Origin: an uncultured Myxococcales bacterium
GTDB taxonomy: Bacteria > Myxococcota > UBA4151
NCBI GenBank assembly: GCA_964013405.1
Contig: CAXGWI010000006.1
Span: forward strand, 2,893-66,892
Direction: 5' to 3'
Length of the DNA stretch: 64,000 nucleotides
This document shows, one piece after another, positions 11,762 through 64,000 of the stretch. The notes below the pieces were generated by a model. It did not search any database. It had not been told where the DNA came from and saw only the letters and a program-made list of their open reading frames with translations. Position 1 is the stretch's first letter, and the number at the start of each line of letters is the position of its first letter. A program made the translations under genes and the position numbers.

Positions 11762-11763
11762 AG

Positions 11764-12984: not shown

Positions 12985-12995
12985 GCGAGGTCGAT

Positions 12996-13418: not shown

Positions 13419-13424
13419 GTCGAG

Positions 13425-16790: not shown

Positions 16791-16793
16791 GCT

Positions 16794-18677: not shown

Positions 18678-19219
18678 GTAAGCTTGGCGACATTTTTCGC
18701 GGCCTCAGCCCCCGGGATCAGCGGGCCCTCGGCCTGCTGGGTCTCGTCCTCCTTCTCTTTCTCGGATTTTTAACGGTCCGGGGCGTCAATCAAGCCCGCA
18801 GCCGCAGCAATGTGGCCCTGACCAACCGCAAGGCTGAACTCAAAAAGGTCATTGCGCTAGCAGCCCGCTATCAAGAGGCTATCGGCGATAAGGAAGCCTT
18901 CAAGGCCCGCATTAAGCGCACCCGAATCAGTCTCGCTTCGCTGCTCGAAGATGCAGGCCGACAAAACCAAATCGAAATCAGCGACATGAAGAACCAAAGC
19001 CCAGCAAAAACCGAAGGGGCGAAGCTGGCGGAAGAGCGGATTCGGGTCACGATCAAATCCATCACGATGGACCAGTTTGCCCACTTCATCGATACGCTGA
19101 TGCAGCGGGGACGAGGGGATCTCATCCGCGTTCGAGAGCTCAGCCTAAAGACACAGTTTGAGGACCGAGAGATGATCAATGCAGTGTTCGTCGTGAGCAC
19201 CTGGAAGGAGGCGAGCTAA
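18674..19219 (+). CDS. gspM: T2SS protein M-like (single N-terminal TM)
   Basis: Size, single TM LGLLGLVLLLFLGFL, operon position, coupled start. Confidence 0.45.
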   Translation: MSKLGDIFRGLSPRDQRALGLLGLVLLLFLGFLTVRGVNQARSRSNVALTNRKAELKKVIALAARYQEAIGDKEAFKARIKRTRISLASLLEDAGRQNQIEISDMKNQSPAKTEGAKLAEERIRVTIKSITMDQFAHFIDTLMQRGRGDLIRVRELSLKTQFEDREMINAVFVVSTWKEAS

Positions 19220-29500: not shown

Positions 29501-30212
29501 AGAGATGCTTCGCCGCATCGTCGATGAGGGACTGCTGCAGGCCCAGGCAGTCTACGGCCTGTTTCCTGCAGCCCGCCGGGGCGATGACATTCAACTCTTC
29601 GATCCCGAATCCGGGGCTGAAACCATGTTGATCCCCTGTTTACGGCAACAACGGGGGCGGAAAAACGCCAACAACCTCTGCCTGGCCGATTTCGTTGCTG
29701 AAACCGAGGATTTCGTCGGTTGCTTTGCTGTGACAGCGGGCCATGGACTGGACGCGATCGTCGCAGCCTATGAAGCCGATGACGACGACTATTCCGCCAT
29801 TTTGGCGAAGGCCCTTGCGGACCGACTTGCGGAGGCCTTCGCTGAACGTTTGCACTTTCAAATCCGCACGGAGGACTGGGGCTATAGCGATGAGGTCTTC
29901 GACAACGAGGCCCTCATCAAAGAGACCTACCGGGGCATTCGCCCGGCGCCGGGCTATCCAGCCTGCCCCGATCATTCCGTCAAACCGGCCCTTTTCGAAT
30001 TTCTCGGCGCCGACGAAATCGGCATGAGCCTGTCGGAAAACCACGCCATGTTGCCGGCAGCTAGCGTCAGCGGTTTCTACTTCGGCCACGCCGACAGCCG
30101 TTATTTTGGCCTGGGGCTCATCACCGAAGAGCAGGCTAAGGACTATGCTGAGCGTCGGGCCATGACCTTAGCCGACGTCCGCCGCTGGCTCCAACCAAGC
30201 CTTGCGGACTAA
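26598..30212 (+). CDS. metH: Cobalamin-dependent methionine synthase
   Basis: 1204 aa. Homocysteine-binding and pterin-binding regions. B12 cap and binding motif [11 protein letters not shown]. AdoMet-binding C-terminal domain. Confidence 0.9.
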
Positions 30213-31423
30213 GGGGCGAGTAACTCGTCAATCTTCGCCTTAAAGTGCTCGAACGGCAGCGCACCGGCGACCTTGTGTCCATTCAGGAAGAAGTTGGGTG
30301 TGCCCCGAGCCCCTACGCGGGCCGCTTCTGCCTTGTCCCCATCGACCTTGGCTCGAATCGCTGGTGATTTCACATCCATACGCCATTGGGCCAGATCGAG
30401 GCCAGACACCCGGCCCGCAAGGGTCTCGATTAAATCCGGGTTCAATTGCCGCGAATGCTCAAACAAAAGATCGTGCATGGGCCAAAAGTAACCTTGAACC
30501 CCCGCGGCCTCTGCGGCCCTCGCCGCTAAGTCCGCATGGGCATGAAAGCTCAAGGGTAGGTGGCGAAAGACCAACTGGACCTGATCTGGGTAGGCTTCTA
30601 GGACCTGCTCCATCACCGCCGCCGCACGCACACAAAACGGGCATTGAAAGTCGCTGAACGAGACGATGGTGACCTGGGGCGCCTTGGCGCCGAGGGCCAT
30701 CGCTCCCTCCCGATGCCGAATCTCCACCGGTCCTTCCGGCTCCGGTGGCGGCCGACGGCGGGCCGGCTTCGCCTCGACTTCTTTGCGGGCCCCATCAGCG
30801 GTCAGCCGATCATAGAGTCCCGCACGCTGGCCCCCATAGTGAAGGTCGACGAGGGCCCGTCCCAAGGCCTCCTTGACCGCCTCCTCGAAGCGCTCATAGG
30901 GCTGGGCCCCAGACATTTTCCGGCCGTTGATGAAGAAGCCCGGTGTCCCCCGAGCCCCCCGGCTCACCGCCTGCTGCTGCTGGGCCTCGATCCGCTTCTT
31001 GAGCGCTGGACTTTCCATGTCCCGCTGGAAGCGGCCTAGATCCAAATTGAGTTCGGCGGCTAAGCGTAAAAAGAGTTCCTCCCCCAAGTCTCCTTGCTCC
31101 TCAAAAAGGCGGTCATGCATGGGCCAGAACTGCCCCTGAAGCCGGGCTGCCTCGGCCGCTAAGGCGGCCGGCATCGCTTGTTTGTGAAAGGCGAGGGGGT
31201 TGTGGAAGAAGACGACGCGCAGGTCAGCAGCCATCGGGCTCTTCAGGAGTTTTTTGAGCGTCCCATCAGCCCGCTTGCAAAACGGACATTGAAACTCGCT
31301 GACGACCACAAGGGTGACCAGGGCATCGCTGGGTCCAATGCTGGGCTCATCAGCGACCGGGAAGTGGTAAACCACTGGATTGGCGCTGGCGAAGACCAAC
31401 AGCGTGCCGAGTAGATAGGACAT
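30209..31423 (-). CDS. Secreted protein with two tandem DsbA-like thioredoxin-fold modules (each with CPFC)
   Basis: Two about 190-aa repeats, each with a CPFC active site and FHNPL/FRHLPL + FWPMHD motifs. N-terminal hydrophobic anchor. Confidence 0.6.
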
Positions 31424-31529: not shown

Positions 31530-33548
31530 TCAGCCACCCTTCTTCTTCAGAGCCGCATCAATCTTCGCTTTGAAGGTCTCAAAGGGAAGCGCACCGGCGA
31601 TATGTTCACCGTTGATGTAGAAGTTGGGCGTCCCGCGAGTTCCGGTCCGGGTGGCTTCGGCCTTGTCCGCGGCCACCTTGTCCTTCACCGCCTTGGACTC
31701 CCGATCCTTCTCCCACTGGGCGAAGTTCAATCCCTTGATGCCCTTGGCGAGTTCGTCGATCTTCTCCGGGCTCAGCTGCCGATAGTTGGCAAAGAGTGCA
31801 TCATGCATCTCCCAGAACTTGCCCTGGTTGTTGGCGGCCTGGGCTGCCCGAGCAGCCAACTCTGCATTCTTGTGGAAGGAGAGGGGCAGGTGCTTAAAGA
31901 CGAAGCGAACCTTGTTTCCATAGGCCTTCTTGATCTGCTCGACGACCCGTGCCCCCTTTTCACAGAAGGGGCATTCGAAGTCGCTGAACTCGTAAATTGT
32001 GACCGCAGCGTTTTTGGGGCCGAAGCCCACATCCATGGGGTGATTCTTGACCTTGACCGGGCCCTTGGGCTTGGGCGGTGCGCCAGCGGGTCCGCCGCCA
32101 CCGACACTCTTGCCTGCTTCGGCTTTCGCCACCGCAGCGGCGGCCTTGGCGAGGGGCGTCCCCTTCTTGATCTCCGCATCAACCTTCTTTAGCTCCGCAT
32201 CGATGATGGTCTTGAAGCTTGCGAAGGGCATGGCGCCCCGCACGGGCACACCATTGACATAGAAGTTGGGGGTTCCCCGGGCACCGATCTTCATGCCTTC
32301 AGCCTGTTGAGCTTTCACTAAAGTCTTGAGGGCCGGGTCCGCCATGTCCTTCTTGAAGCGGCCCATATCCAAGCCGATCTTCTTCGCAATGGCGTCGTAG
32401 CGAGCCTGGTTCAGGCCGCCCCGAGGGGTCTTGAAGAGCTCGTCGTGCATGGGGAAGAATTTGCCCTGCCGGCCGGCCGCTTCGGCGGCAATAGCTGCTG
32501 CCTCAGCGTTCTTGTGAAAGCCAAGGGGGTTGTGCCGGTACTCGAAGTACACGTCTTTGGGGTAGTTCTTCATGATCTCTTCGACGACCTGGGCACCGCG
32601 GGTGCAGTAGGGGCATTCGAAGTCGCTCCACTCGATGAGGTGGATCTTTGCAGGCCAGGCGCCTTTACCCCGAGGGGCTTTGGCGCTAGCCGTGAGGTTG
32701 ATCCGCTTTTCCGCCGGGCGGCTGGGCCGCTTCGGCTGGGCTTTGGGATCGAATTTATTCTTCGCCCGCACCCGCTGCGTGGCGCCGTTCTTGATCAACT
32801 CGTTGTAGATATTCTCTGGTGCGACGCCCTTGGCCTGCTGAATCTTCGCCAGGGTCAGACCCACCTCAACGAGTTCTTCGAACTTCGCCAAGGGCTGGGC
32901 ACCGCTGAGCTTGCGTCCATTGATGAAGAAGCTCGGGGTACCACCGGCACCCAACTTACGGGCCAGGGCTTGCTGGTCCTTGATCTTCTTCTTCAAGCCC
33001 TCGTCTTTCATGTCGGCTTGGAACTTGGCCTTATCCAGGCCCAGTTCTTCCGCATACTTCTCGAGATCGGGGAGCTTCAGGGCTTTCTGGTTGGCGAAGA
33101 GCTTGTCGTGCATCTCCCAGAACTTGCCTTGATTGCCCGCAGCTTCAGCGGCCAGCGCCGCGTTCATGGCGTTTTTGTGGAAGCTCAGCGGATTGTGGAA
33201 GAAGGCAACTCGGATGTCCTTGCCATACTTACCCGTGGTCAGGTCCTTGATGGTGGGCCCAACCTTAGAGCAGAAGGGGCATTCAAAGTCGCTGATCTCA
33301 ATAATCGTGACCAGCGCATCCTTGGGACCTTTAACCCGGGCTTCACCCAACTCAACCTTGTAGACCGGCTCATCGTTTGAGCAGGCCTTAACCAGCGGGC
33401 TGTCGCAGGCGTCAGCGCTCTTCCCGGCGGCTACAGTGTCAGCCCCTGACGACCCCCTGTTCAACTGCGTGCCAACAAAAACACCCAGGCCCGCGGCCAC
33501 CAACAGACTAAAAATCTTGAGGCCGAAGCCGCTACTATCTTGCTGCAT
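31530..33548 (-). CDS. Secreted protein with three tandem DsbA-like thioredoxin-fold modules (CPFC, CPYC, CPFC)
   Basis: Three about 200-aa repeats with CxxC plus FHNPL / FWEMHD-type motifs. Signal/anchor LLVAAGLGVFVG. Confidence 0.6.
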   Translation of the reverse strand: MQQDSSGFGLKIFSLLVAAGLGVFVGTQLNRGSSGADTVAAGKSADACDSPLVKACSNDEPVYKVELGEARVKGPKDALVTIIEISDFECPFCSKVGPTIKDLTTGKYGKDIRVAFFHNPLSFHKNAMNAALAAEAAGNQGKFWEMHDKLFANQKALKLPDLEKYAEELGLDKAKFQADMKDEGLKKKIKDQQALARKLGAGGTPSFFINGRKLSGAQPLAKFEELVEVGLTLAKIQQAKGVAPENIYNELIKNGATQRVRAKNKFDPKAQPKRPSRPAEKRINLTASAKAPRGKGAWPAKIHLIEWSDFECPYCTRGAQVVEEIMKNYPKDVYFEYRHNPLGFHKNAEAAAIAAEAAGRQGKFFPMHDELFKTPRGGLNQARYDAIAKKIGLDMGRFKKDMADPALKTLVKAQQAEGMKIGARGTPNFYVNGVPVRGAMPFASFKTIIDAELKKVDAEIKKGTPLAKAAAAVAKAEAGKSVGGGGPAGAPPKPKGPVKVKNHPMDVGFGPKNAAVTIYEFSDFECPFCEKGARVVEQIKKAYGNKVRFVFKHLPLSFHKNAELAARAAQAANNQGKFWEMHDALFANYRQLSPEKIDELAKGIKGLNFAQWEKDRESKAVKDKVAADKAEATRTGTRGTPNFYINGEHIAGALPFETFKAKIDAALKKKGG

Positions 33549-48554: not shown

Positions 48555-49865
48555 CTATAAGGGCATTTCGCCCAGCAAAGCATCGGAACCGTCCTTACGC
48601 CGAGAAAGGACGCGTAGACGGTAGTCCCCCTCTGGCAGTCCTGACTTCTTCAACTGCTTCTTGATCACATGGCGCATGACTGCACATGGCCCCGGCCGTG
48701 GTAGCGCCACACATTCTTTACCGGCCCGCGCAACATAAAGACCCAGTTGCTTGCGGCCCCGCAACCGAGGAATGCGTTGCACGACCTCACCCTCGCTATC
48801 GATGATCTGGCTGTGTCGAAGCGGAAAGCCGACTGGCTTCGCGTACATCTTATAGGCTGAGAGCGGGTAGAAGTCCCTCTGCACGACGGTCAAAGCCAAG
48901 GTGCCCAGGACGATTCCCAGTGAGACGAAGGTCATCGGCAAAGGCCAAGGGTTCATGCCCCCAAATACGGTCTTCCGATCCGGCAACCGAGGCCAGGCCA
49001 TGAAGATCAACTGAAGGATGATGAGTTCAAGAAAGAGGATATTCTGAAGAACGAAAACGGCGATGTGAAAAGTGACATAGCCCAAAGGCAACAGCAACCG
49101 TGCCCTGCGTGAAACAAGCAAAAGGGGCGCTGCCAGTTCCATGAGCAAAACGACCGTTGCAAGAACAACAAACACCCAGTCCGGCTGAGCCGCCAACTGG
49201 ATTGCGCCCCCAAAGCCATACTCAATCGGATCGAGCCCGCACACAAGCAAGCGAACCCGGAGGCCATCGGCATCAAACCAATTCCAGCCGGCCCCAATGA
49301 CCTTGGAGAGCCCCCCGCTCCAATACGCGGTGGCTAAGCTCGCCCAGATCAGAAAAACCGCAATACTTGCCTGGTCTCTCAGGCCCTCTGAGGAGGGCAG
49401 GATGGGCTGCCGCCGCGCATCAAGGCTCCAAACCGCTGCACAGGGTGTAAAGAAGAGGATAGCCAGCAACAGAATCGGAAGTTGCTCAGAATGATAGAAG
49501 ATACTGTGCTCTCGTAAGAGCCCGCCGATCAGGATTTGGAGCAACAGGCTAAGCCCGATAGCGCTCCGTGTCTTGAACCCTAAAGTCACCGCCACCAAGC
49601 TAAGAAAACAAATCATTTGCCCGACGAGTAGCGCATTCGGACTGCTCAAGAGAAAGTCATGAAGCGGTGTGAATGCAAAGGCCTTCATGAGACCAGAAGG
49701 CCGGCGGATCTCTGCTGAAAACTCGGTGAGGATCTGGAGGTCTTCTAGGGGTAAGCCCAGCATCAAGCAGCCGCCCACCAGAATCCGAATGAAGGCAAGC
49801 CGCTTAAGCGTTCCAGCCCGCAAGGCCTGCTGAAAGCCTGCTCGCACTTGTGCTTTTATCAACAC
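48555..49865 (-). CDS. HTTM-domain (vitamin-K-dependent gamma-carboxylase-like) polytopic membrane protein
   Basis: N-terminal LAFIRILVGGCLML resembles HTTM signature (...LA.fRi.fG...). About 8 predicted TM helices. Confidence 0.4.
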   Translation of the reverse strand: MLIKAQVRAGFQQALRAGTLKRLAFIRILVGGCLMLGLPLEDLQILTEFSAEIRRPSGLMKAFAFTPLHDFLLSSPNALLVGQMICFLSLVAVTLGFKTRSAIGLSLLLQILIGGLLREHSIFYHSEQLPILLLAILFFTPCAAVWSLDARRQPILPSSEGLRDQASIAVFLIWASLATAYWSGGLSKVIGAGWNWFDADGLRVRLLVCGLDPIEYGFGGAIQLAAQPDWVFVVLATVVLLMELAAPLLLVSRRARLLLPLGYVTFHIAVFVLQNILFLELIILQLIFMAWPRLPDRKTVFGGMNPWPLPMTFVSLGIVLGTLALTVVQRDFYPLSAYKMYAKPVGFPLRHSQIIDSEGEVVQRIPRLRGRKQLGLYVARAGKECVALPRPGPCAVMRHVIKKQLKKSGLPEGDYRLRVLSRRKDGSDALLGEMPL

Positions 49866-49908: not shown

Positions 49909-50556
49909 TCAGCGCAGCTCACAGTTCTGAAGAGCCCCCGAAGCACTTTCCAGAGCCAACTTGGCTTCCCCTGGATAGCCATCCACTAGCGTAGACCAAG
50001 CCCGGTTCATATTCCGCTCGGCAGCGCTCACGCTGGAGATAAACTGAGCATACGCGAGCAGCCCATACTGGGCGACCAAGCGGTCTTTTTGCGCCACCAA
50101 GCCCCCCACGTGCTCCTCCTTCAAGGCCTCCATTCGCTCGCAGATCTCGAGATAGTCGCTGGTCTCGGCATCCTTAGCGAGACCGGCCAGGTCCTGATGG
50201 ATGGTTTGAAGCCCGGCGCTCAATGCCAAGATATGCTCCTCGGGCGACAGCGTCGCCACCGCTGATTCGCTGGATTCATCATCCATTTCCAACTGGGCGA
50301 ATCGACGCAGCAAAAAGGCTGCGAAGAAAATGAGGGCGATGCCCAGAGCGAAGCCCAGCCAAGCCCCCTGCCCCCAGGCGAGTAGCCGAGCTATTTGTGG
50401 GTGGTGGCCCTGAGCCACCAAGCCGTCGATGGCGGCGGAAGCGGCTGGAAAAGATGCGCCATACGCGGCCATGCCCACACCGGCGACCAAAAGAAAGCCG
50501 GCATCAACCCGGGCCAAGTTGCGTCCTCGTTGATCCATCTCAGGCCCCCTTTCCAA
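49909..50556 (-). CDS. Hypothetical membrane protein
   Basis: ORF with two hydrophobic segments. Overlaps OPT stop by 17 nt. Confidence 0.3.
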   Translation of the reverse strand: MERGPEMDQRGRNLARVDAGFLLVAGVGMAAYGASFPAASAAIDGLVAQGHHPQIARLLAWGQGAWLGFALGIALIFFAAFLLRRFAQLEMDDESSESAVATLSPEEHILALSAGLQTIHQDLAGLAKDAETSDYLEICERMEALKEEHVGGLVAQKDRLVAQYGLLAYAQFISSVSAAERNMNRAWSTLVDGYPGEAKLALESASGALQNCELR

Positions 50557-52273
50557 GCAGGTCGATGATCGTGATGGCCAAACTGGTCAGGGCTTCACCC
50601 ACGATCAAGCCCGCAGCAAAGGGCACCACCTTACCACCGAAGAAAGCGCCGCCCCGGCTGCTCTCAAGGCGCCAACCCACCAAGCAACCGATGCCGTAGC
50701 CCAAGGTCACTTCGAAAGGCAGGTACATGGCTAAACCCATCAGCACCCCCAGCCCAGCGATGGGCAAGGCCCCGAGGCTCAAGCCAATGAGTCCACCGGC
50801 CGCATATTTGTCGAGGGGCGCATTGCCGCCGATGACCCCATCGATCATGGCCTGCAAGGCGCCGGCTTGGGGTGCGGAGAGACAATCACCGCTGCCCTTT
50901 TGCAGGCAGGCCGTAGACTCGGGACCAAAGCCGGGCGTGCCGTCGCCGGTGGCTGTCCACAACAAGTAGACGGTGCCCACAGCAACCACCGGCCCGATCC
51001 AGCCCGTAAAGATCTGCGCCAACTGTTGTCGCCGGGGGATACCACCGACCAAATGACCGGTTTTCAAGTCCTGCATCATGTCAGCGCATTGGCCAACCCC
51101 GACGCAAACCGCGACCCCCACGGTGACCGCGACCACCGCATTGCCCCCGGTGATCGCCAACATCAGCGTCACACCGATGAGGGCCATACCGGAAAGTGGT
51201 GAGATATCGGTCATGCCCGTCGCCTGGGCGACGATGAGTCCAGCGAGGGCCGTCCACAGCACGCCGACCACGGCCACCGGCAGGGCCATCACCGGACCCA
51301 CCGTCAGCGAGGAACTCAAGTAAAGCAGCAGCGTCGCGCCGGCCAAGCCGATGGCCAAGGCCCGTCCCGACAGTTCCTGAGCACCGCCGCCAGCGGCGGT
51401 TTTTGCTGCCGAGCCCAAGGTTTTGATGGCGGCACGAATCGCGGGAAAGGCAGCGATCACGCCGGCCAGAGCACCACCGATCAAGATGCCGATGCCTGCA
51501 GGCCGCAACAACTGACCGTAGAGTTGCCCCCAGACCTCGTCCCCATTGCTGCCAGTAAAGGGATCCGTCCAGCCAGAGGCGACCGCCATGGGCGCGAGAA
51601 TCCACCAGGCGAGCACCCCGCCGAAGGCGAAGGGTAAGCCCCCCCGACCCGACAGCATGCCGGCGCCGATATTCATCAGACTGAGACTGAGCAGGGTGCC
51701 CGTGTAGGCGGGAATGCCAAACCAGTCTCCCACGGCAAGAGCCTCAGGAACGGCATCGACCTTATCGACTAAGATCTTCACGCCAGCGCTCAACAATGCG
51801 CCAAAGGCAAGGAGCTTGAGCTTCTCCACACCGGCACCAGGCGACTTCAGAATGGAGGCCACCGCCATCCCTGAGGGAAAGCGTAGCCGGTCGAACTCCA
51901 GCATCTGCTTGCGCAGCGGGATGATGAACACCACACCGAGAAAGCTGCCGGCCATGGCGGAGAGCACCATGGCGCCCCAGGAGAAATCTTCGCCCATGAG
52001 CAGCAGGGCGGGCAGGGTAAAGACCACGCCCGAACTGGACACGTTGATGGCACTGGCGATCGTCTGGTTGACGTTGTTCTCGATGATCGTGCCCGTACCG
52101 AGGGCCTTGAGAACGGCAAATCCAAGGATGGCGGCAACGGTCGAACCGCCCAGGCCAAAGCCCAATTTAAGGCCCACATAAACGAAGGCCGCGGTCATCA
52201 AGACACCGAGCAATGCCCCCAGGATCATGGCCTGGAGGGTGAGTTCAGGATAGGGGCGTTCGCTGCTGCTCAA
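50540..52273 (-). CDS. OPT-family oligopeptide transporter
   Basis: 577 aa, about 16 TM helices. N-terminal ELTLQAMILGALLGVLMTAAFVYVGLKLG typical of bacterial OPT proteins. Confidence 0.7.
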   Translation of the reverse strand: MSSSERPYPELTLQAMILGALLGVLMTAAFVYVGLKLGFGLGGSTVAAILGFAVLKALGTGTIIENNVNQTIASAINVSSSGVVFTLPALLLMGEDFSWGAMVLSAMAGSFLGVVFIIPLRKQMLEFDRLRFPSGMAVASILKSPGAGVEKLKLLAFGALLSAGVKILVDKVDAVPEALAVGDWFGIPAYTGTLLSLSLMNIGAGMLSGRGGLPFAFGGVLAWWILAPMAVASGWTDPFTGSNGDEVWGQLYGQLLRPAGIGILIGGALAGVIAAFPAIRAAIKTLGSAAKTAAGGGAQELSGRALAIGLAGATLLLYLSSSLTVGPVMALPVAVVGVLWTALAGLIVAQATGMTDISPLSGMALIGVTLMLAITGGNAVVAVTVGVAVCVGVGQCADMMQDLKTGHLVGGIPRRQQLAQIFTGWIGPVVAVGTVYLLWTATGDGTPGFGPESTACLQKGSGDCLSAPQAGALQAMIDGVIGGNAPLDKYAAGGLIGLSLGALPIAGLGVLMGLAMYLPFEVTLGYGIGCLVGWRLESSRGGAFFGGKVVPFAAGLIVGEALTSLAITIIDLLGKGA

Positions 52274-57587: not shown

Positions 57588-58223
57588 ATGAAGTTCTTTA
57601 TCGACAGTGCAGATCCCACGGAAATCGCCGAGGCCGAGGCCATGGGCCTCCTCGACGGTGTCACCACCAACCCGAGCCTCCTCAAGAAAGCAGGGCTAGG
57701 GCGAGAAGAGGCCTTGCAGCAAATCTGCGCCCTGCTGACCGGACCGGTCAGTGGCGAAGCGGTTGGCCCCGATGTGGACACCTTTATTGCAGAGGGGCTT
57801 GCCCTACGGGCCATCGCCGACAACATGGTGGTGAAGCTGCCCTGCAACGAGGCCGGCCTCAAAGCCTGCCGCCATCTTTCCGCCCAGGGCATTCCCGTGA
57901 ACATGACGCTGGTCTTTCAGCCGGTTCAAGCGCTGCTCTGTGCCCGGGCCGGCGCCACTTTTGTCAGCCCCTTTTTAGGCCGTCTCGACGACATCTGCTC
58001 CTCGGGCATGGAGTTGATCAACGAGATCCGGGTGATCTTCGACAACTACGCGCTCTCCACCCAAATCCTCGCCGCCTCGATCCGCAGCCCGGAGCACGTC
58101 AAGCAGGCTGCGCTCTCGGGCGCTGATGTCTGCACCGTTCCTTTGCCGGTCATCAAAAAGCTCCTTCACCACCCGCTGACGGATCGAGGGATCAAAGCCT
58201 TTGAGGCGGATGCAGGACTGTAG
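57588..58223 (+). CDS. tal: Transaldolase, short Fsa/TalC type
   Basis: MKFFIDSADPTEIAEAEAMGLLDGVTTNPSL. About 210 aa. Confidence 0.8.
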   Translation: MKFFIDSADPTEIAEAEAMGLLDGVTTNPSLLKKAGLGREEALQQICALLTGPVSGEAVGPDVDTFIAEGLALRAIADNMVVKLPCNEAGLKACRHLSAQGIPVNMTLVFQPVQALLCARAGATFVSPFLGRLDDICSSGMELINEIRVIFDNYALSTQILAASIRSPEHVKQAALSGADVCTVPLPVIKKLLHHPLTDRGIKAFEADAGL

Positions 58224-60697
58224 TGACTTCGCCGGCGCCCAGCCGAATGGAACGGATACTCAGCATCGGCGGGTGGCTGACTCGCTTTAGTTTGATGCTT
58301 GGGGCCGCAGCCCTCATTCCTGCGGGCTGGTTCGCACTCTCTTTGTATCAAGAACATCGGGAAGGGTTGCCCCCCGTCCCCGATCTAGACAACTACCGGC
58401 CGCCATCGATCACCCGGGTCCTGGCGGCCGATGGCACCACCTTGGCCGAGTTTGCCGAGGAGCGACGGATCGTCGTTCCCTATCAGCGCATGCCCCAGCG
58501 GCTGGTGCAGGCCTTCGTGGCTGCGGAAGACAAGAACTTCTTCGACCACGACGGTGTCGACCTCAAAGGCATCGTGCGCGCAGCCCTCGTGAACCTCAAA
58601 GCGGGGCGCACCGTACAGGGGGCATCCACCATCACCCAGCAATTGGCCAAGCAGCTCTTGGTTCGGCACCAGGGTTACAGCAAAGGCCGAATGCGCAGTT
58701 TGGCGCGCAAAATCCGTGAGGCGATCCTCGCCCGGCGAATCGAATACGCCCTCGATAAAGAGGAGATCCTCTACCTCTATCTCAACGAAATCTATCTGGG
58801 TCATGGTGCTTACGGTGTCCAGGCCGCCTCCCAGGCCTATTTTTCGAAGAATGTAGAGAGTCTCAGCCTGGGTGAGATGACGTTGCTCGCGGGCCTACCG
58901 CCGGCCCCCAGCCGGTTCTCGCCCCTAAAAAATCCAAAGTCGGCGCGAACCAAACAAGGCTATGTTTTGAAGCGCATGATCGAAGAGGGCTATATCAGCC
59001 TGGAGGATGCGAAAGCGGCCCGACAGGAAGGGGCCGAAAAGAAGGTCAAAGTTCGCGAAAACCTGTTTCGAGACATCGCCCCTTATTTCACCGAGCAGGC
59101 TCGACAGGTCTTCGTCGACCAAATGGGTGAAGAGGAGTTGATGCGGGGAGGCTGGACCATTCAAACCACCCTGGACATCTCCCGGCAGATCAAAGCGAGG
59201 ACAGCGCTCCAAGAGGGCATTGAGGCTTTGGATCGGCGCATGGGTTATTGGGGGCCAGCAGCCCGCTTCCAGCCCGAACAAGTGGAGGCAGTGGCCAAGA
59301 CCTACGCAAAAAATGTCCTCAAGGGCGCACCGGCGAGCCGCGAGCGAGAGCATCTCGCCATCATCGCCCGTACCGAGCGAAAAAGAGCCCTCGCCCGAGT
59401 CGGCGACGAGCTCCTGCCCATCCACCTCAGCGACCATCGTTGGATGCGCACCGGCCGCCGCCGAGCCTATAGCCTCCACGACCGTCCCACCGATCTTCGT
59501 CGCCGCTTTGAAGTGGGCGATCTGCTTCGGGTACGTTTCGACACGGACCGCAAGGGCAGGGAAAAGCTTCGTGTGGTACAGGACCCACTGCCCGAAGGGG
59601 CCTTGGTCAGCCAGGATTTGCGCACCGACTACGTGGTGGCCTTGGCCGGCGGTTACGACTTTGACCGTAGTCAGTTTAACTGCGCCTTTCAGGCTTGCCG
59701 ACAGCCGGGGAGCGCTTTCAAGCCCATTATCTTTTCCGCAGGTCTGGCTCTGGGGGGGCGCATCCGCCGGGGGGCGCCCGTGGAGACGATCACCGTCACC
59801 ACCCAGCTGAGCGATGCCCCCATCGTCCGCCACGATTTCTCCACCGGGGTGCGCTGGAAGCCGGCCAACTACGACCGCAGCTATACCGACGAGGTCACCC
59901 TCCGGCGGGCTTTGATGATGAGCATGAATTTGCCCACCATCGACCTCTTTGAACGGGTGGGCTCAAAGAAGGTGGTGGAATGGGCCAACAGCATCGGCAT
60001 CGAGCAGGAACTGCATGTGGATGCGAGCATCGCGCTGGGCAGCCACTGCGTCATTCCTTGGGAGTTGCTGCAGGTCTACGCCTTGTTCGGCAAAGCCGGT
60101 CAACGACCAGCTAAGCGCTTCATCACCCGCATAGAATCCAGTGAAGGCGATGTCTTTGAAGATCGGGCCGATTACCGAGACGTCTGGGCGAGCCGCTTTG
60201 AACGCGTCGATCGCATGGCGCGCCAGGCCCTGGAGCCCCCAGAACAAGTCATCGCACCGGGCATCGCCTACATTATGACCTATCTGATGCGGCAAGTCGT
60301 GGACGCCGGCACAGCCACTCGAGCCCGCATCTCTGGGGTCCCCGTGGCGGGCAAGACCGGCACGACCAACGACAACAAGGACGCCTGGTTTGTGGGCTAC
60401 AGTCCCCACCTCGTCACCGGCGTCTGGATCGGTGAGCGCTTCAACCTGCGACCCTTGGGGCGCTCAGAGACCGGGGGCAGAACGGCTGCTCCCATCTGGA
60501 AGGCCTATATGACCGCAGCCCTCGACGGCACCGATCCGGGGGACTTTGGGGTGCCCGATGACATCGAATTTGCCGAGGTGGACGCCCGCTCGGGCCGCTT
60601 GGGCGGCAAAACCCGATTGCCCTATATGAAGGGGACGAAGCCCACCCGCCGAGTTCGGGTCGACAATCAATCAGCGGGGGTCAGCGACGAGCTCTAG
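58223..60697 (+). CDS. mrcA: Class A penicillin-binding protein (PBP1A-type transglycosylase/transpeptidase)
   Basis: GT51 motifs EDKNFFDHDGVD and RKIREA. Transpeptidase SxxK/SxN/KTGT (SAFKP, KTGTTN). Confidence 0.85.
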   Translation: MTSPAPSRMERILSIGGWLTRFSLMLGAAALIPAGWFALSLYQEHREGLPPVPDLDNYRPPSITRVLAADGTTLAEFAEERRIVVPYQRMPQRLVQAFVAAEDKNFFDHDGVDLKGIVRAALVNLKAGRTVQGASTITQQLAKQLLVRHQGYSKGRMRSLARKIREAILARRIEYALDKEEILYLYLNEIYLGHGAYGVQAASQAYFSKNVESLSLGEMTLLAGLPPAPSRFSPLKNPKSARTKQGYVLKRMIEEGYISLEDAKAARQEGAEKKVKVRENLFRDIAPYFTEQARQVFVDQMGEEELMRGGWTIQTTLDISRQIKARTALQEGIEALDRRMGYWGPAARFQPEQVEAVAKTYAKNVLKGAPASREREHLAIIARTERKRALARVGDELLPIHLSDHRWMRTGRRRAYSLHDRPTDLRRRFEVGDLLRVRFDTDRKGREKLRVVQDPLPEGALVSQDLRTDYVVALAGGYDFDRSQFNCAFQACRQPGSAFKPIIFSAGLALGGRIRRGAPVETITVTTQLSDAPIVRHDFSTGVRWKPANYDRSYTDEVTLRRALMMSMNLPTIDLFERVGSKKVVEWANSIGIEQELHVDASIALGSHCVIPWELLQVYALFGKAGQRPAKRFITRIESSEGDVFEDRADYRDVWASRFERVDRMARQALEPPEQVIAPGIAYIMTYLMRQVVDAGTATRARISGVPVAGKTGTTNDNKDAWFVGYSPHLVTGVWIGERFNLRPLGRSETGGRTAAPIWKAYMTAALDGTDPGDFGVPDDIEFAEVDARSGRLGGKTRLPYMKGTKPTRRVRVDNQSAGVSDEL

Positions 60698-61082
60698 GAC
60701 CGCTCCGCAGACGAGATATCAGACGATCAGCGCGACGAGTCATTCGGGATAAAAGGAGGGCTCGAAAACGAGAGATACGAATCGCTCGCCCGTTGCGCTC
60801 AATGGCGGCGAGCTTGCCGATGGCTTGGCTGCGATCGAACCAGCCGTCATCCTCGTTGCGGTGATCACCTTGTAGCCGTAGCTGCCCCTCTTGGTGCTCC
60901 ATCAGGCGATGCAGCAACAGATCGCCCGGGCTCCGCTCGATCAAGACCACATCCCCCCGCCGCAAGGGCCCATCGATGGGAACGATTCGAACCAAGTCAC
61001 CGGCTTTAATCCAAGGCCACATGCTGCGACCTTGGGCGAAGAATCGGATGGGTTTGCCTTCTTTTAGGAGCCGGGCAAGCAC
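60681..61082 (-). CDS. Soluble S26-family (signal-peptidase-I fold) peptidase, ER/archaeal Ser/His type. Start ambiguous (GTG 61082 or ATG 61187).
   Basis: Box B GRSMWPWIKAGDLV, box C RRGDVVLIE, box D LLLHRLM (His in place of Lys), box E GDHRNEDDGWF. No TM segment. Confidence 0.5.
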   Translation of the reverse strand: MLARLLKEGKPIRFFAQGRSMWPWIKAGDLVRIVPIDGPLRRGDVVLIERSPGDLLLHRLMEHQEGQLRLQGDHRNEDDGWFDRSQAIGKLAAIERNGRAIRISRFRALLLSRMTRRADRLISRLRSGPRARR

Positions 61083-61840
61083 GCAGCAGCCTCCAAGGTC
61101 TCGACCAGGGCGTCTCGAGGAGAGTCCCCTCGCAAATTCCAATGGACCCGGTAACAGGGGACGTTGTCCACCACCCGCTTCACCCAACTCAAATCAGGAG
61201 CCAGGTCCTCTGCTTCCAGGCGAACGACTGCGGAAAGAAGCGCTGTTGCAGCATCGGCGGCGGTCACCGGCTCAATCCGAGGAGCGCGCTCAGACTGGAC
61301 CGGCATTAAGAGCGCACTCAAAGGGCGACGCTCTAGGTGGTCGGCACGCAATTCCCCGGGAACCACGGTGCCCTGCAGCCAAAAATCATCCGTTTGGCCG
61401 CCAAATCGAATCAGCTCGTCGCCAAGTTGCTCAAGTCCCAAGCGACGAACTAAGGTCGACTTTCCAGCACCGGAAGCGCCAAGAATCAAAAAGCCACGGT
61501 CCGTGCTCAAACAGCAACCAGCCGCGTGGGCGATGCGCCAATCATTGCCCTTACTTGCCGCAGCCAAGGCGGCAATCACCCCCACAAAATGACTCCAGGG
61601 CACCGTCCAGCGGGTGTGAACCCGAGGGTTACGGTAAGTCGTGACTCGAAGAATCCGATCGTCAAAATTCCAGTCCAGTCGATCGAGAGCGAACTGGTTA
61701 GATTGCATTCGAGGGAGCGTCGTTGATCCCGACCGCAGCACGAGGGTCAGCGCCTCTGCTCCGTGGTCACATGCTTCGGGCTGATACCGGCCGCACCACC
61801 GGAATAAGTCGGACAGATCCTCTTCCGACTCGATCTCCAC
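61064..61840 (-). CDS. HPr kinase C-terminal-domain-like P-loop kinase (HprK-related kinase)
   Basis: P-loop GFLILGASGAGKSTLVRRLG aligned to HprK gvLi.G.SGiGKSe.aleL. About 130-aa N-terminal domain of unknown function. Confidence 0.55.
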   Translation of the reverse strand: MEIESEEDLSDLFRWCGRYQPEACDHGAEALTLVLRSGSTTLPRMQSNQFALDRLDWNFDDRILRVTTYRNPRVHTRWTVPWSHFVGVIAALAAASKGNDWRIAHAAGCCLSTDRGFLILGASGAGKSTLVRRLGLEQLGDELIRFGGQTDDFWLQGTVVPGELRADHLERRPLSALLMPVQSERAPRIEPVTAADAATALLSAVVRLEAEDLAPDLSWVKRVVDNVPCYRVHWNLRGDSPRDALVETLEAAACLPGS

Positions 61841-61890
61841 AGAAAGGTCCGACTGAAGAAGGAGTCGATTCGAAATGGTGCCGATACCCT

Positions 61891-62022
61891 TTTACTTGGA
61901 CTCGCTAAGAAGCACGTCCTGAGTAAGCTCTTGCTCGCTGATCACCTCAGGCCGAAAATAAGGAACCCGCTCTTTGGTGGGTAAGCGAGGCGCACGGCCC
62001 TCCTCTTTTTTCTCTTCTGCCA
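61891..62022 (-). CDS. Unannotated 43-aa ORF: MAEEKKEEGRAPRLPTKERVPYFRPEVISEQELTQDVLLSESK. Candidate substrate/precursor peptide.
   Basis: ATG 62022 preceded by AAGGGAG at -8. Lies 13 nt after the FG-GAP protein stop and 50 nt before the kinase start, same strand. High-GC third positions consistent with coding. Confidence 0.35.
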
Positions 62023-62035
62023 TGTCTAGACTCCC

Positions 62036-64000
62036 TTAATGTCGAATATTCACGTAGCCGCCACCGGAACGAACCGGGAAGGCGAGGTCAGGTTTTCCAT
62101 CCAAGTTCGCATCGGGCAAACACACCCCATGGACGGCGCCACTGGTGTTTGCGTCGAGCCCAGTGCCCACACCGTAGGTCTTCGCCAGGGTTGTGATCGC
62201 ACTGCCAAAGTATACATAGCCCTCGTTCGTCGCCCCAGTGAGGAGATCCATTTTACCATCACCGTCGATGTCACAAAGACTCGATTCGTCGATTTCGTTA
62301 AAGCTGCTCGATCCGGCCGGCGCGGTGATCACATGATCTCGCGCTCCACCCAATGCAGGGCCACCCTCCCAGATCGAGATGGCTCGAGTGCAACAACCAT
62401 TACCGGCCAAGATATCCGCGGTGCCGTCACCGGCGACATCGCCCACAGCAAGATAAAATCCGGTTTTACCTTCGCCGCCGCCCGCACCGGCAAGCAGAAT
62501 CACGCCCGCACTCTGATAGGTGTAGGCACCATCTGCGATCGGCCCGGGAACCACGACGAGCTCCCCGACGTTGCCATTGGCTTCTTCACCGCCAATAATG
62601 AGGTCGCCATTACCGTCGCCTGTCACATCTCGACCCGCGTTCAACGACGTACCAGTCGACGAGAAGGGTCGACCTGTCACCGTCACCGCGGCATCCGCAT
62701 CACTACGATTTTGGGTCAGGATATCACCATCCCAAACCCAGGTCTTACCGGTGGAGCTGTTGTGGCGCCAGGAGGAGGCTGCAAGGTCAACGGTTGCATC
62801 ACCCACAAGAGAGCCACCGGCCGATAAAGAGTAACCAAAGCGGTCACCAGCGGTACCCGTGATCGTGATGCTTGGATTTGCCGCCAAGCCCGCTCCGGAG
62901 CCGTTGTAGATGAAGATCTTGCCATCACCATCTCTAGGTGCGGAGACGACGAGATCATCAAAGCCGTCACCGTTAAAGTCTGCGGCCGTGCAATCGCTGC
63001 CGAATCGGCCGCCACTTGCCGTTCCAAAGCGGGTGATTGGAGTGAGATTACTCAAATCGTCTGCACCCATGAAGATGATGGCGCCGCCCACCTGGGAGCC
63101 GGCGGGCGCAAAGCTGCGATCGGTCACCACCAAGTCACTGCGACCGTCGTTGTTGAAGTCACCACGACACGCACGCTGGGCGAACTTATTCGTATTGCCC
63201 GTAATTCCGCTGGCTGCGTAGGCTGACAGGGTCAGACTAAAGTCGACGGAGAGCGTGCCGAGATCCGACGTATTGCCTAGGTCATCCGTTGCCTGACCTG
63301 CGAAGAAGACCTGCTGGTCAAAGGGCAAACCTGTCACCGAGACCAAAAGATTTTGGCCGGCACCTGCCGGCGTCATCTCAGCGTTGATAACGGTCGCATT
63401 ACCGAAATTGTTGGCATCGATAGCAGCCGAGCTATGGCGTAGACTGTAAGACGTCACCGTCCCCTGATCGAAGTCGTCGCCAGGCTCAGTCCAATTGATA
63501 TCCACACTGCCTGCACGGTTGTTCACATTGGCACTGGCCAAGCTCATCGCATCTGGCTTCCCGACGTCGACATTCGCCACCAGCTGCGTTGTCGCTGTGT
63601 TGCCGTTGGCATCAGTGGCCGTCACCGTCAGCGTGTGGTTCTGGTTCGTCAAACGAATATCAGTGATCACGTTATCGGTATCGCCGGCCACTGCTTTCGT
63701 TTGCACATCGCCGTCCTGATCGCTGTTGACCACCAGGGTGCCACCGGCCGCACCACCAACGGCGACCGTAATACTGGTGTCTAAGCGCAGATCGCCGGCA
63801 TTGTTCTCGTGCACTTCATCGTCATCATAAACATAAGTGACCGGACTGTTGGCTGGATCCGTAATCTCCACCGTAGGAGCCACCGTATCTACGATGGCGT
63901 TAATAGCAACTTGCGTCGTGTTGTTCTGAGCGTCGGAAATCGAGGCACTCACGCTCACCGTTCCTTCGTCAACGGTCACCCCAGCAAAACTGACCGAGGC
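62036..64000 (-). CDS. Large secreted FG-GAP (integrin-alpha-like beta-propeller) / Ig-like repeat protein, C-terminal part (N-terminus outside window)
   Basis: Repeated FG-GAP Ca-binding loops: FNNDGRSDLVV, FNGDGFDDLVV, GDGNGDLIIG, GDGTADILAG, DGDGKMDLL. Thr/Asn-rich Ig-like N-terminal repeats. Confidence 0.55.
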   Translation of the reverse strand, partial: ASVSFAGVTVDEGTVSVSASISDAQNNTTQVAINAIVDTVAPTVEITDPANSPVTYVYDDDEVHENNAGDLRLDTSITVAVGGAAGGTLVVNSDQDGDVQTKAVAGDTDNVITDIRLTNQNHTLTVTATDANGNTATTQLVANVDVGKPDAMSLASANVNNRAGSVDINWTEPGDDFDQGTVTSYSLRHSSAAIDANNFGNATVINAEMTPAGAGQNLLVSVTGLPFDQQVFFAGQATDDLGNTSDLGTLSVDFSLTLSAYAASGITGNTNKFAQRACRGDFNNDGRSDLVVTDRSFAPAGSQVGGAIIFMGADDLSNLTPITRFGTASGGRFGSDCTAADFNGDGFDDLVVSAPRDGDGKIFIYNGSGAGLAANPSITITGTAGDRFGYSLSAGGSLVGDATVDLAASSWRHNSSTGKTWVWDGDILTQNRSDADAAVTVTGRPFSSTGTSLNAGRDVTGDGNGDLIIGGEEANGNVGELVVVPGPIADGAYTYQSAGVILLAGAGGGEGKTGFYLAVGDVAGDGTADILAGNGCCTRAISIWEGGPALGGARDHVITAPAGSSSFNEIDESSLCDIDGDGKMDLLTGATNEGYVYFGSAITTLAKTYGVGTGLDANTSGAVHGVCLPDANLDGKPDLAFPVRSGGGYVNIRH

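Follow-up and report, generated by a model that had tools for sequence, protein, structure and literature searches.

The cassette described here is a relative of the linear polyphosphorylated peptide (LPP) system of Bacillota (Popov et al., Nat Commun 2026; PMC13381572) and is probably an RRE-guided, LPP-type peptide-maturation cassette. It lies near the end of the window, the 64,000-nucleotide stretch of DNA that was analyzed, and consists of three genes: a 43-codon open reading frame (ORF), a P-loop protein and a soluble peptidase. All three were found on the minus strand at the place given in the original prediction, following a giant FG-GAP gene, and the three-gene cassette is confirmed as real. 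Its assignment to the LPP relatives follows from the LppS-like peptidase, an LppB-like PqqD protein encoded just past the window, and a peptide that combines a YxxPxV motif with a serine (Ser40) in the register of the phosphorylated Ser3 of LppA. The cassette is not of an undescribed kind, as had been claimed, because a publication of May 2026 already describes the enzyme trio (PMC13381572). Its features are as follows.

62036..64000, minus strand: giant FG-GAP lipoprotein gene, 3' part, 647 codons in the window (ORF list)
61892..62023, minus strand: precursor-like peptide gene, 43 aa, MAEEKKEEGRAPRLPTKERVPYFRPEVISEQELTQDVLLSESK (RBS, ORF, conservation)
61943..61960, minus strand: leader motif Y22-F-R-P25-E-V27 (YxxPxV, RRE-binding type; read from sequence)
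61895..61912, minus strand: predicted core LLSESK, codons 38-43 (placed by register only)
61064..61840, minus strand: HprK/PEPCK-fold P-loop protein, predicted peptide kinase, 258 aa, GTG start
61526-61528, minus strand: P-loop protein His105
61454-61480, minus strand: P-loop protein Walker A, GASGAGKST
61415-61420, minus strand: P-loop protein Asp141-Glu142
60681..61082, minus strand: soluble SpI-like (S26B-type) serine peptidase, predicted leader peptidase, 133 aa
61023-61025, minus strand: peptidase Ser20
60909-60911, minus strand: peptidase His58
60846-60848, minus strand: peptidase Asp79

The precursor-like peptide

The ATG of the small ORF is positioned 12 nt after the stop codon of the FG-GAP gene and 7 nt after AAGGGAG, the good ribosome-binding site that had been predicted. 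For the source contig, the NCBI annotation lacks the ORF, whereas two ENA assemblies of this DNA include it. Three further lineages have a small ORF in this slot (L001, 47 aa; L002, 49 aa; L006, 35 aa). Across the four lineages pN/pS is 0.36–0.79 at a pS of 0.62–0.91, where synonymous sites are near saturation, with no variation at Y, P, V, Q, D and L; the ORF is conserved at the amino-acid level. Scored against HMMs of radical-SAM (rSAM)-type and LPP precursors, the 43-aa ORF comes out on top among the window's 1,675 six-frame segments. These matches are weak (E 0.26 and 0.85, respectively), and the likeness to LPP leaders consists mostly of the short YxxPxV motif; hhalign of the peptide to the two precursor models gives P values of 2.7e-5 and 4.4e-5.

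Motifs of the form [Y/W]xxPx[L/V/I] have been shown to bind LppB and lasso B1 proteins. The spacing from Tyr to Ser in the 43-aa peptide is 18 residues, the same as from Y-16 to S+3 of LppA. In the LppA register, positions -7 and -5 of the peptide are Q and L, position -2 is acidic, and Ser and Lys occupy +3 and +6, with K43 aligned to K+6 of AQSWNK. Read this way, the leader would be cleaved between Val37 and Leu38, and Ser40 (61904-61906) would be the phospho-acceptor. The corresponding tails in the other lineages are LVSESK (L001), LATGSGD (L002) and LERERE (L006), of which the second has Thr at +3 and the third contains no Ser. For LppA, the S3T variant is not phosphorylated (PMC13381572).

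Recognition protein, kinase fold and peptidase

Contig L014, which matches the window with 0 mismatches over 5,620 nt, carries a PqqD gene adjoining the start of the giant gene, about 4.8–5.1 kb past coordinate 64000. The earlier statement that no PqqD/RRE protein is visible holds inside the window but fails just past its edge. The top solved-structure match of this protein is LppB (PDB 9x8z; E 1e-6, versus 0.054 for lasso TbiB1), to which it is 31% identical, and it keeps counterparts of LppB N33, V35, D70 and F74. Its top NCBIfam match is ScmD (E 2.3e-13, 50 bits).

The NCBI version of the P-loop protein starts at an internal Met and has 214 aa; the longer N-terminus included here is conserved in L006 and has a predicted fold with a pLDDT of 84–88. 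Identity to relatives is 63% in L001, 39% in L002 and 44% for the L006 type (P0016). The proposed likeness to HPr kinase is clear by fold but weak by sequence (HprK_rel_B, E 0.016), and the scores against Hpr_kinase_C, TIGR04352 and TIGR04355, the models that had been suggested for checking, and against TIGR04249 are all far below cut-offs. The protein has a His-Lys-Asp-Glu set that matches the His-Lys-Asp-Asp motif shown to be essential in lasso-peptide kinases. It can be likened to LppK only via TIGR04249/ScmC-type matches, which also occur in the neighborhood table of the LPP paper (PMC13381572).

The peptidase was listed as an ORF at 60681-61187, but comparison with homologues puts its actual start at the GTG at 61082. 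This start overlaps the kinase stop by 19 nt, and the final 17 nt of the gene overlap a convergent PBP1A gene. The protein has a LexA/signal-peptidase fold and, as predicted, the boxes GxSMxP, RGD, HR and GDxxxxxD with His at the Lys position. No hydrophobic stretch of anchor length was found in it, so the peptidase is probably cytoplasmic. It is 33% identical to LppS, and Ser20, His58 and Asp79 align with the mutationally proven S29, H68 and D93. L6 and G9 of the N-terminal helix are invariant across the peptidase family; in LppS the N-terminal helix touches the RRE–leader sheet (PMC13381572).

LPP clusters comprise LppA, LppK, LppB, LppS, LppD and LppN; for the system of Paenibacillus alginolyticus, experiments showed that LppK attaches phosphates to core Ser3 and that the SpI-like LppS cuts off the leader only if it is presented by the RRE LppB (Popov et al., Nat Commun 2026; PMC13381572). 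In the pathway that we propose for the window cassette, the PqqD-family protein would bind the YxxPxV motif of the 43-aa peptide, and the HprK/PEPCK-fold kinase, using ATP, would add phosphate, perhaps repeatedly, to a serine close behind the leader, with Ser40 the likeliest acceptor. The soluble Ser20/His58/Asp79 peptidase would dock on the RRE–leader complex and remove the leader, probably between Val37 and Leu38, and the phosphorylated hexapeptide LL(pS)ESK would be released. That the kinase modifies and the peptidase matures the small peptide had been part of the original prediction; as a prediction it now has strong support from homology, at 33% identity for LppS and 31% for LppB.

Genomic setting and alternative readings

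The giant gene, which continues past the window end, encodes a 2,263-aa lipoprotein with Ig-like (Big_13, Big_3_3) and FG-GAP repeats (Pfam matches: Big_13, E 2.6e-21; FG-GAP, E 6.6e-21) and a lipobox, LSGCS, read in the full gene on the contig. The full contig order is PqqD/RRE gene, giant gene, small ORF. In L001, L002 and L006, too, the small ORF comes after an FG-GAP gene, and the giant gene lies between the RRE and peptide genes in every lineage with sequence available. Co-transcription with the lipoprotein gene suggests a role at the cell surface. For the original suggestion that the cassette may regulate the adhesin-like protein, conserved gene order is the sole evidence. The giant gene and the small ORF share a reading frame in only two of four lineages, so a read-through fusion is unsupported. 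No exporter or LppN-type transferase accompanies the cassette: equivalents of LppN and LppD are absent from the 64-kb window, and LppN was also not found in the upstream contigs.

The peptidase family occurs together with the kinase family, a PqqD protein and a short YxxP/WxxP peptide in Acidobacteriota, Chloroflexota and a Thermomonas MAG, and the same set is present in 80 metagenome contigs. At well-flanked metagenome loci its partners in other phyla are the kinase family (25 of 25), PqqD (24 of 25) and rSAM/SPASM genes (25 of 25). The constant rSAM partner raises an alternative that we consider unlikely: the window cassette could descend from a radical-SAM RiPP cassette, either as a relic or as an offshoot put to new use. 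The ancestral set would have combined an rSAM/SPASM maturase and a Cys-rich precursor with PqqD, the peptidase and the kinase-fold protein. Loss of the maturase and the Cys-rich core would have left a leader-only peptide and no product, and this remnant might serve as a decoy or regulate the RRE and enzymes. Consistent with this, neither the window nor the upstream contigs contain an rSAM gene of that type, the peptide stops at the point where YxxP-type rSAM precursors enter their Cys-rich core (S42-K43 aligns with their first Cys-Lys), and a neighbor-joining tree places the peptidase in the rSAM-associated, non-Bacillota clade, apart from LPP peptidases. The small ORF, kinase and peptidase are, however, intact and constrained in four lineages at saturated synonymous sites, which argues against decay; every catalytic residue is retained, and the RRE is nearest LPP RREs rather than rSAM-type RREs. 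Loss of rSAM is also compatible with an LPP-like function, making the relic reading less a rival mechanism than a history of how the cassette arose.

SipW is a dedicated processing enzyme for TasA and TapA, and SipW-type enzymes are the nearest housekeeping relatives of the peptidase. By analogy, the peptidase, possibly with the kinase, could process the giant lipoprotein encoded within the operon, with the small ORF as an adaptor or chaperone. Large proteins do accompany related peptidases: in Acidobacteriota the peptidase domain forms an in-frame fusion with a signal/TM segment and a protein of about 2,300 aa, and elsewhere the peptidase is followed by ORFs of 1,138–1,152 aa (L054 and L078), by a 686-aa secreted protein (L086) or by sulfatase, 624-aa and 997-aa Peptidase_C25 genes (L021). 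We nevertheless regard this reading as improbable, in that an anchorless, probably cytoplasmic peptidase is set against an exported protein with a lipoprotein signal peptide, in whose N-terminal region no YxxP motif was seen. The sole experimentally studied homologue cleaves an RRE-bound leader peptide, and the limited frame sharing noted above also speaks against it.

The sub-threshold scores against all four curated kinase models would fit a P-loop protein that is another ATP-using enzyme or a PEPCK-like-fold scaffold, with the peptide cleaved but unphosphorylated. This is quite unlikely given a fold common to the HPr-kinase C-domain and PEPCK, the conserved His/Lys/Asp/acidic set of lasso kinases, and the phosphorylation of peptides by HprK-like kinases whose RRE and peptidase partners are of the same types. 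The shortness of the 43-codon ORF, its absence from the NCBI record and E-values not significant alone might suggest an intergenic spacer that is open by chance; this is very improbable in view of its ribosome-binding site, its position, open frame and invariant residues at saturated divergence, its first rank against two independent precursor models, and a location that exactly matches the precursor slot of related cassettes.

Comparison with known systems

The radical-SAM/SPASM cassettes, which occur in Acidobacteriota, Chloroflexota, Thermomonas and many metagenomes, share with the LPP-like cassette kinase-fold homologues (Pfam PF27840 ScmC, precomputed annotation), PqqD, a homologous peptidase (32–40% identity), precursors with a [Y/W]xxPx[L/V/I] leader and, often, large secreted proteins adjoining or inside the cassette. 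They differ in their rSAM/SPASM maturases, of which they have one or two, and in their Cys-rich core (…EAVLGxCK…C…C…); the window lineage has neither. We found no published description or functional account of the peptidase, kinase, PqqD and radical-SAM/SPASM combination; these cassettes appear only as SSN cluster 3 ‘RRE others’ in the LPP supplement (PMC13381572). SynChlorMet (NCBIfam TIGR04248–TIGR04251: ScmD, ScmC, ScmE, ScmF) is similar in that the contig PqqD matches ScmD and relatives of the P-loop protein match ScmC, but at scores far below the curated cut-offs (50 versus 100 for ScmD; at most about 30 versus 125 for ScmC), and its ScmE/ScmF radical-SAM genes have no counterpart in the cassette.

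Paeninodin-type lasso clusters (PadeK, ThcoK, PsmK) also have an HprK-like kinase with the conserved His-Lys-Asp-acidic set, a discrete RRE for a [Y/W]xxP leader and modification of a precursor Ser before leader removal, the last being predicted here. The window cassette has no B2 cysteine protease or lasso cyclase, and its predicted leader peptidase belongs to another class. Lasso systems use the C-terminal Ser as acceptor, whereas the 43-aa peptide ends in Lys. The peptidase resembles ER/archaeal/SipW-type signal peptidases (S26B) and the NiSOD protease SodX in fold and in the use of Ser/His (plus Asp) in place of Ser/Lys. Checking it against signal-peptidase models, as had been suggested, gave weak matches (TIGR02228, 24.2 bits, cut-off 51.85; TIGR02754, 24.3 bits, cut-off 63.25). 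Unlike these enzymes, it has no membrane anchor, and it is teamed with an RRE and a kinase, not with the Sec pathway.

The LPP system is described as restricted to Bacillota, with LppN and LppD as core genes and whole precursors of 35–200 aa (PMC13381572). The host here is a marine Myxococcota-like MAG, and the cassette has neither NTP_transf_5 (LppN) nor an MsbA-like exporter (LppD), nor is it set in a capsule-polysaccharide locus. The leader ends in QDV rather than the FET cleavage motif of LppA, and the core would have 5–7 residues versus 14 to about 45 in the LPP precursors compared; a six-residue product would be far below any described LPP core length. The RRE gene is parted from the other cassette genes by the lipoprotein gene. 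The two systems share an HprK-like kinase, a PqqD-type RRE that is a discrete protein, a short precursor that has YxxPxV in its leader and Ser at +3, and a soluble leader peptidase that resembles archaeal-type signal peptidases and has a Ser/His/Asp triad. To this LPP plan the window cassette adds a non-Bacillota host, a six-residue predicted core and a lipoprotein gene inside the operon.

Organization of the cassette locus

The genes of the cassette follow one another on the minus strand, and re-reading of the window sequence bears out the coordinates and descriptions of all three in the original prediction. Comparison with homologues places the start of the peptidase gene at the GTG at 61082, not at the TTG at 61187.

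Genes of the locus within the window
62036 to beyond 64000, minus strand: FG-GAP gene (giant lipoprotein), upstream of the three cassette genes
61892–62023, minus strand: 43-codon ORF, 12 nt after the FG-GAP gene, with AAGGGAG in front
61064–61840, minus strand: P-loop protein gene, 258 codons, GTG start, 51 nt after the small ORF
60681–61082, minus strand: peptidase gene, 133 aa, GTG start at 61082, overlapping the P-loop gene by 19 nt

An ENA contig (L014) that is identical to the window (0 mismatches across 5,620 nt) continues beyond its end, where the giant gene is seen to code for a lipoprotein of 2,263 aa that carries Ig-like and FG-GAP repeats. The encoded proteins belong to the Tara Oceans bin ‘MAG: Myxococcales bacterium CMH55’ (GCA_002722845.1). 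The start of this gene is abutted by a 92-aa PqqD-family gene (PF05402), which would lie ~4.8–5.1 kb past coordinate 64000. The apparent lack of a PqqD-type leader-recognition protein (RRE) was an edge effect of the window, since the gene is located on the same contig outside it. A further gene (L014:113-1174), separated from the PqqD gene by 69 nt on its upstream side, encodes a 353-aa membrane-anchored protein that has several TM segments at its N-terminus and a thioredoxin domain resembling TlpA/ResA (CGSC); it may be part of the same operon as the cassette. The genes abut or overlap, with no room for extra genes, and the order thioredoxin-like protein, PqqD protein, giant lipoprotein, small ORF, P-loop protein and peptidase presumably represents one operon.

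The 3′ end of the peptidase gene overlaps that of a convergent class A PBP gene (PBP1A-like, 58223–60697) by 17 nt (window 60681–60697), and the same tail-to-tail arrangement is present in L005, L006 and L013. In the NCBI annotation of PBND01000079.1 the kinase is 214 aa long, its start being set at an internal Met, and the 43-codon ORF is missing (window 61708–61840 and 61892–62023); the ENA gene calls for the same DNA give a kinase of 258 aa and include the small ORF. Between the peptide and kinase genes there is a weak hairpin with a 6-bp stem and a T-rich stretch (61849–61868, minus strand). We rejected this element as an attenuator, with 2 terminator-like sites found and 1.6 expected in shuffled sequences.

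Several other genes were recorded elsewhere in the window. A 672-aa protein (31530–33548, minus strand) contains three tandem DsbA/Thioredoxin_4 domains (Pfam E 1.9e-71), an unusual multi-DsbA architecture, and the ORF beside it (30209–31423) may encode a further thioredoxin-like protein. A co-oriented gene run on the plus strand (7650–20163) resembles, by sequence, a type II secretion or type IV pilus-like system, and several small proteins encoded at 14072–15351 have a prepilin-type N-terminus (…FTLIEVVVAL…). At a distance of 8–12 kb from the cassette lie genes for a membrane protein with an HTTM domain (48555–49865, minus strand; Pfam E 9e-7) and for an oligopeptide transporter of the OPT family (50540–52273, minus strand; PF03169 on the equivalent L012 genes).

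The cassette proteins and the LPP system

Linear polyphosphorylated peptides (LPPs) have been described in Bacillota (Popov et al., Nat Commun 2026, PMC13381572). The LPP core genes encode a precursor (LppA) with the consensus YxxPxVLxHQxIxFETxxS, an HprK-like kinase (LppK), an RRE (LppB), a SpI-like peptidase (LppS), an MsbA-like exporter (LppD) and an NTP_transf_5 protein (LppN), and the clusters sit within capsule loci (PMC13381572). In B. subtilis, LppK places one to four phosphates on core Ser3, and deletion of lppS abolishes leader removal after T-1. LppS cuts in vitro only when LppB is present, and the S29A, H68A and D93A variants are inactive. According to the authors, SpI-like peptidases were not previously found in RiPP pathways, LPPs are restricted to Bacillota, and their biological role is unknown. 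Supplementary Data 1 of that study (SSN clusters 3 and 11) already includes SpI homologues of acidobacterial, chloroflexotal and myxococcotal origin (e.g. RPJ14135.1, OLE53994.1 and, from Chondromyces, EYF04409.1). An ‘other’ RRE is encoded near some of them, and the paper took their analysis no further.

The peptidase gives only sub-threshold S24/S26 matches to curated HMMs (Pfam, NCBIfam), including 24.2 bits against a cut-off of 51.85 for TIGR02228 (type I signal peptidase, archaeal/ER type). A profile search returned 245 relatives, which, where named, are called ‘S24/S26 family peptidase’ or ‘signal peptidase I’. Residues G18, S20, M21, P23, D44, H58, R59, D73 and G89 are invariant among 50 aligned sequences, and D79 is present in at least 90%. 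The predicted structure (pLDDT 82) confirms a SpI-like fold, and the C-terminus forms a basic helix. The protein has catalytic residues and fold in common with the archaeal/ER type I signal peptidases; their anchor is absent here, no hydrophobic segment of this kind being found in the sequence. The assignment as a soluble Ser/His S26-type peptidase, with S20 and H58 conserved, holds. With LppS, taken from the supplement of PMC13381572, the peptidase shares 33% identity (BLASTP E 3e-18), and S20, H58 and D79 align on the LppS triad S29, H68 and D93. The family profile matches LppS with an hhalign probability of 99.3%. In a neighbour-joining tree without support values, the peptidase groups with a non-Bacillota, radical SAM (rSAM)-associated clade.

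The contig PqqD protein has LppB as its best solved-structure match (PDB 9x8z_B, E 1e-6, compared with 0.054 for the lasso RRE TbiB1), with 31% identity. Counterparts of LppB N33, V35, D70 and F74, which hold the leader Tyr and Pro, are kept. Its score against ScmD is 50 bits (cut-off 100), and a neighbour-joining tree without support values places it as sister to the LPP RREs.

The P-loop protein could not be assigned to a family directly by HMM. Pfam and NCBIfam HMMs gave generic P-loop matches only, the best specific model being HprK_rel_B (TIGR04355) at 14.3 bits (E 0.016; cut-off 200 bits), and a PDB sequence search returned P-loop noise. HprK_rel_A (TIGR04352) and ScmC (TIGR04249) do not match the window protein, nor does Hpr_kinase_C at E up to 1; the best E with the HprK_rel_A/HprK_rel_B pair among 61 sampled relatives is 9e-8, and relatives reach 14–16 bits with Hpr_kinase_C (cut-off 33.3). 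The matches among these 61 proteins, all below cut-off, are to HprK_rel_A (41), ScmC (25), HprK_rel_B (19) and PEPCK (15). Membership in the HprK_rel_A, HprK_rel_B and ScmC families is ruled out by such scores. Fold comparison was needed and, together with alignment, identifies an HprK/PEPCK fold and its catalytic residues. The likeness is confined to the C-domain; the HprK N-terminal domain is not shared. The term ‘HPr-kinase-like’ is apt for the C-domain fold; the curated HprK/P (Pfam Hpr_kinase_C, TIGR00679), TIGR04352 and TIGR04355 models stay below cut-off or give no match.

When 1.84 billion representatives were searched by profile, 11,918 relatives of the P-loop protein came up with E up to 1e-3, and most of the top 150 listed are ~270 aa long. 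The precomputed Pfam name for such proteins is PF27840 ScmC. Among the 61 relatives His105, Asp141 and Glu142 are invariant and the Walker-A Lys127 is present in at least 90%; with Lys127, these residues correspond to the His-Lys-Asp-Asp set that is essential in lasso-peptide kinases. The link to LppK is indirect, through TIGR04249-type matches on both sides; TIGR04249 (ScmC) is among the domains around LPP peptidases in the neighbourhood table of PMC13381572. One candidate relative locus (L020, Clostridiales) was set aside as a seemingly unrelated P-loop match.

The small peptide and its putative maturation

An ORF of similar size occupies the same slot in three further lineages, L001 (47 aa), L002 (49 aa) and L006 (35 aa), each with an FG-GAP gene upstream; kinase identities to the window protein are 63% (L001), 39% (L002) and 44% (P0016, L006-type). 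The ORFs share the pattern Y-x-x-P-(E/V)-V-x-x-E-…-Q-D-(V/A)-L, and their ends are variable. Because pS is 0.62–0.91 and pN/pS 0.36–0.79 over the conserved 18 codons, the small ORF is indicated to be a translated gene under constraint. Read-through of a stop codon joining the peptide to the giant protein was discarded: the frames agree in the window and L002, but this is chance, since they disagree in L001 and L006.

The peptide can be placed in the LppA register, with Y22(-16), P25(-13), V27(-11), I28(-10), Q31(-7), L33(-5), D36(-2) and V37(-1), followed by the tail L38 L39 S40(+3) E41 S42 K43(+6), where LppA has …FET/AQSWNK. Relative to the LPP consensus, the peptide agrees in register at Y, P, V, I/L, Q, L/I, D/E and S(+3) and differs at H-8, F-3 and T-1, with QDV standing in place of FET. 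The +3 residue is Thr in L002, and the L006 tail (LERERE) is without any Ser. Among 1,675 window segments the peptide ranks first against the LPP-precursor HMM, but with E 0.85; the hhalign P for LPP leaders is 4.4e-5 across 17 columns. Leaders of the rSAM type are about equally similar (E 0.26, P 2.7e-5, also rank 1 of 1,675). Homology to either kind of precursor is only suggestive, and the likeness to LPP leaders is carried by a short, putatively RRE-binding motif. In rSAM precursors of the YxxP type, the first Cys-Lys stands opposite S42-K43 in the alignment, which fits an origin from an rSAM-type cassette that lost its maturase and most of the core. A single cleavage register for all precursor types was not upheld: it is true of the YxxP type, and the WxxP type is one residue longer.

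From the mapping of peptidase, RRE and peptide onto the LPP system, we infer that the RRE would bind YFRPEV of the 43-aa peptide, the kinase would phosphorylate Ser40, and the peptidase would cut between V37 and L38 to yield LL(pS)ESK. That the putative kinase phosphorylates and the peptidase matures the small peptide, as originally proposed, is well supported by homology to LPP. The cassette is not ‘undescribed’, however: its kind is already known, because the mechanism matches by homology a system proven in 2026. The locus itself is new in four respects: it comes from another phylum, its gene set is minimal, its predicted core is a hexapeptide, and it sits inside an adhesin-like operon.

Relatives, surface proteins and known systems

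In other phyla, homologues of the P-loop protein sit with a PqqD protein, one or two rSAM/SPASM genes and a short precursor (e.g. …KPYEAPQIVRVSLRPDEAVLGHCK…C…C…). Such loci occur in Acidobacteriota (L016, L017, L019), a Thermomonas MAG (L018), Chloroflexota (L021/L022) and L023. The same peptidase is present in L016, L018, L021/L022 and L023; in L017 and L019 the tally extends to the kinase-fold gene. When metagenome contigs were scanned with the peptidase, 382 loci were confirmed, and 80 of them were retrieved. The P-loop protein co-occurs with the peptidase: within 6 kb it is found at all 25 well-flanked loci among the 80 (upstream sequence of at least 2.5 kb, downstream sequence of at least 1.5 kb), as is rSAM, and PqqD at 24 of them. 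An rSAM gene is absent only in the window lineage (L025, L026 and the window-type loci L001, L002 and L006); none was found in the 64-kb window or L012–L015. The locus leads to a much larger rSAM-coupled group, in which the peptidase and kinase-fold pair is near-obligately tied to rSAM/SPASM proteins and Cys-rich precursors and which spans Acidobacteriota, Chloroflexota and many environmental contigs. No description of this class was found in the searchable literature, and searches for ‘SynChlorMet’ and ‘ScmC’ found nothing relevant. The rSAM-type precursors do not match NCBIfam models.

The 80 metagenome loci (L025–L104; e.g. L040, L066, L086) differ in gene order, with at least three arrangements: PqqD, rSAM, precursor, kinase-fold, peptidase; kinase-fold, rSAM, PqqD, peptidase, rSAM, precursor; and PqqD, rSAM, precursor, rSAM, kinase-fold, peptidase. 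WxxP is present in 24/30 metagenome precursors, with …RPEEAVLxxCK… and several Cys. An NTP_transf_5-like gene is also found at 17/80 loci.

The cassette is recurrently tied to surface proteins. The giant gene is inside the operon in every lineage with available sequence; four large genes lie between PqqD/rSAM/peptidase and precursor/kinase-fold genes in L023; and ORFs of 1,138–1,152 aa directly follow the peptidase in L054 and L078. In L016, and in three further proteins (P0163, P0167, P0174) from the search for peptidase homologues, the peptidase domain is joined in frame with a signal/TM segment, and in L016 an extracellular protein of ~2,300 aa comes after the fused segment. In this Candidatus Acidoferrum MAG (L016:8455-15840), no stop codon separates the peptidase from the hydrophobic signal/TM-like segment after it (…IFALLLHAPSAAAQA/YTITD…). 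A fusion in which a cytoplasmic peptidase leads through an anchor into a giant secreted protein is unusual; the peptidase-to-TM continuation recurs in P0163, P0167 and P0174. Because of the adhesin-like operon here, the capsule loci of LPP clusters and the large secreted flanking proteins elsewhere, our analysis points to a possible cell-surface role.

The locus might be an rSAM-less offshoot of a large RiPP class, not found described, that combines an RRE, an HprK-fold kinase, a soluble SpI-like protease and rSAM/SPASM proteins, and might make a (poly)phosphorylated hexapeptide tied to the giant FG-GAP surface lipoprotein; taken as a whole, we regard this reading as rather unlikely. If true, adhesion or matrix assembly could depend on the hexapeptide as a signal or cofactor. 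The logic of RRE, kinase and SpI-type peptidase, reported for LPPs as restricted to Bacillota, appears to extend to a marine Myxococcota-like bacterium, and four small genes with a six-residue predicted core provide a minimal test case for the purpose of phosphopeptides and the core size needed by the enzymes.

The locus was also compared with three known systems. No lasso B2 transglutaminase-like protease or Asn-synthetase-like cyclase was found among the scanned ORFs, a minority of those in the window, or the precomputed Pfam matches of the contig. SynChlorMet cassettes have two rSAM/SPASM genes and ScmC–ScmF above cut-offs, whereas the window locus is without rSAM and scores below; the relatives, too, were rejected as bona fide members (ScmE and ScmF 70–88 bits, cut-off 400). 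The LPP core set includes LppN and LppD, whereas no NTP_transf_5-like frame was found in the 64-kb window or L012–L015 and, as the original prediction had noted for an ABC exporter, no LSGGQ/E signature occurs in the six frames of the window. The likeness to LPP clusters lies in an LppS-type triad peptidase and an LppB-type discrete RRE, both of which are present on the contig.
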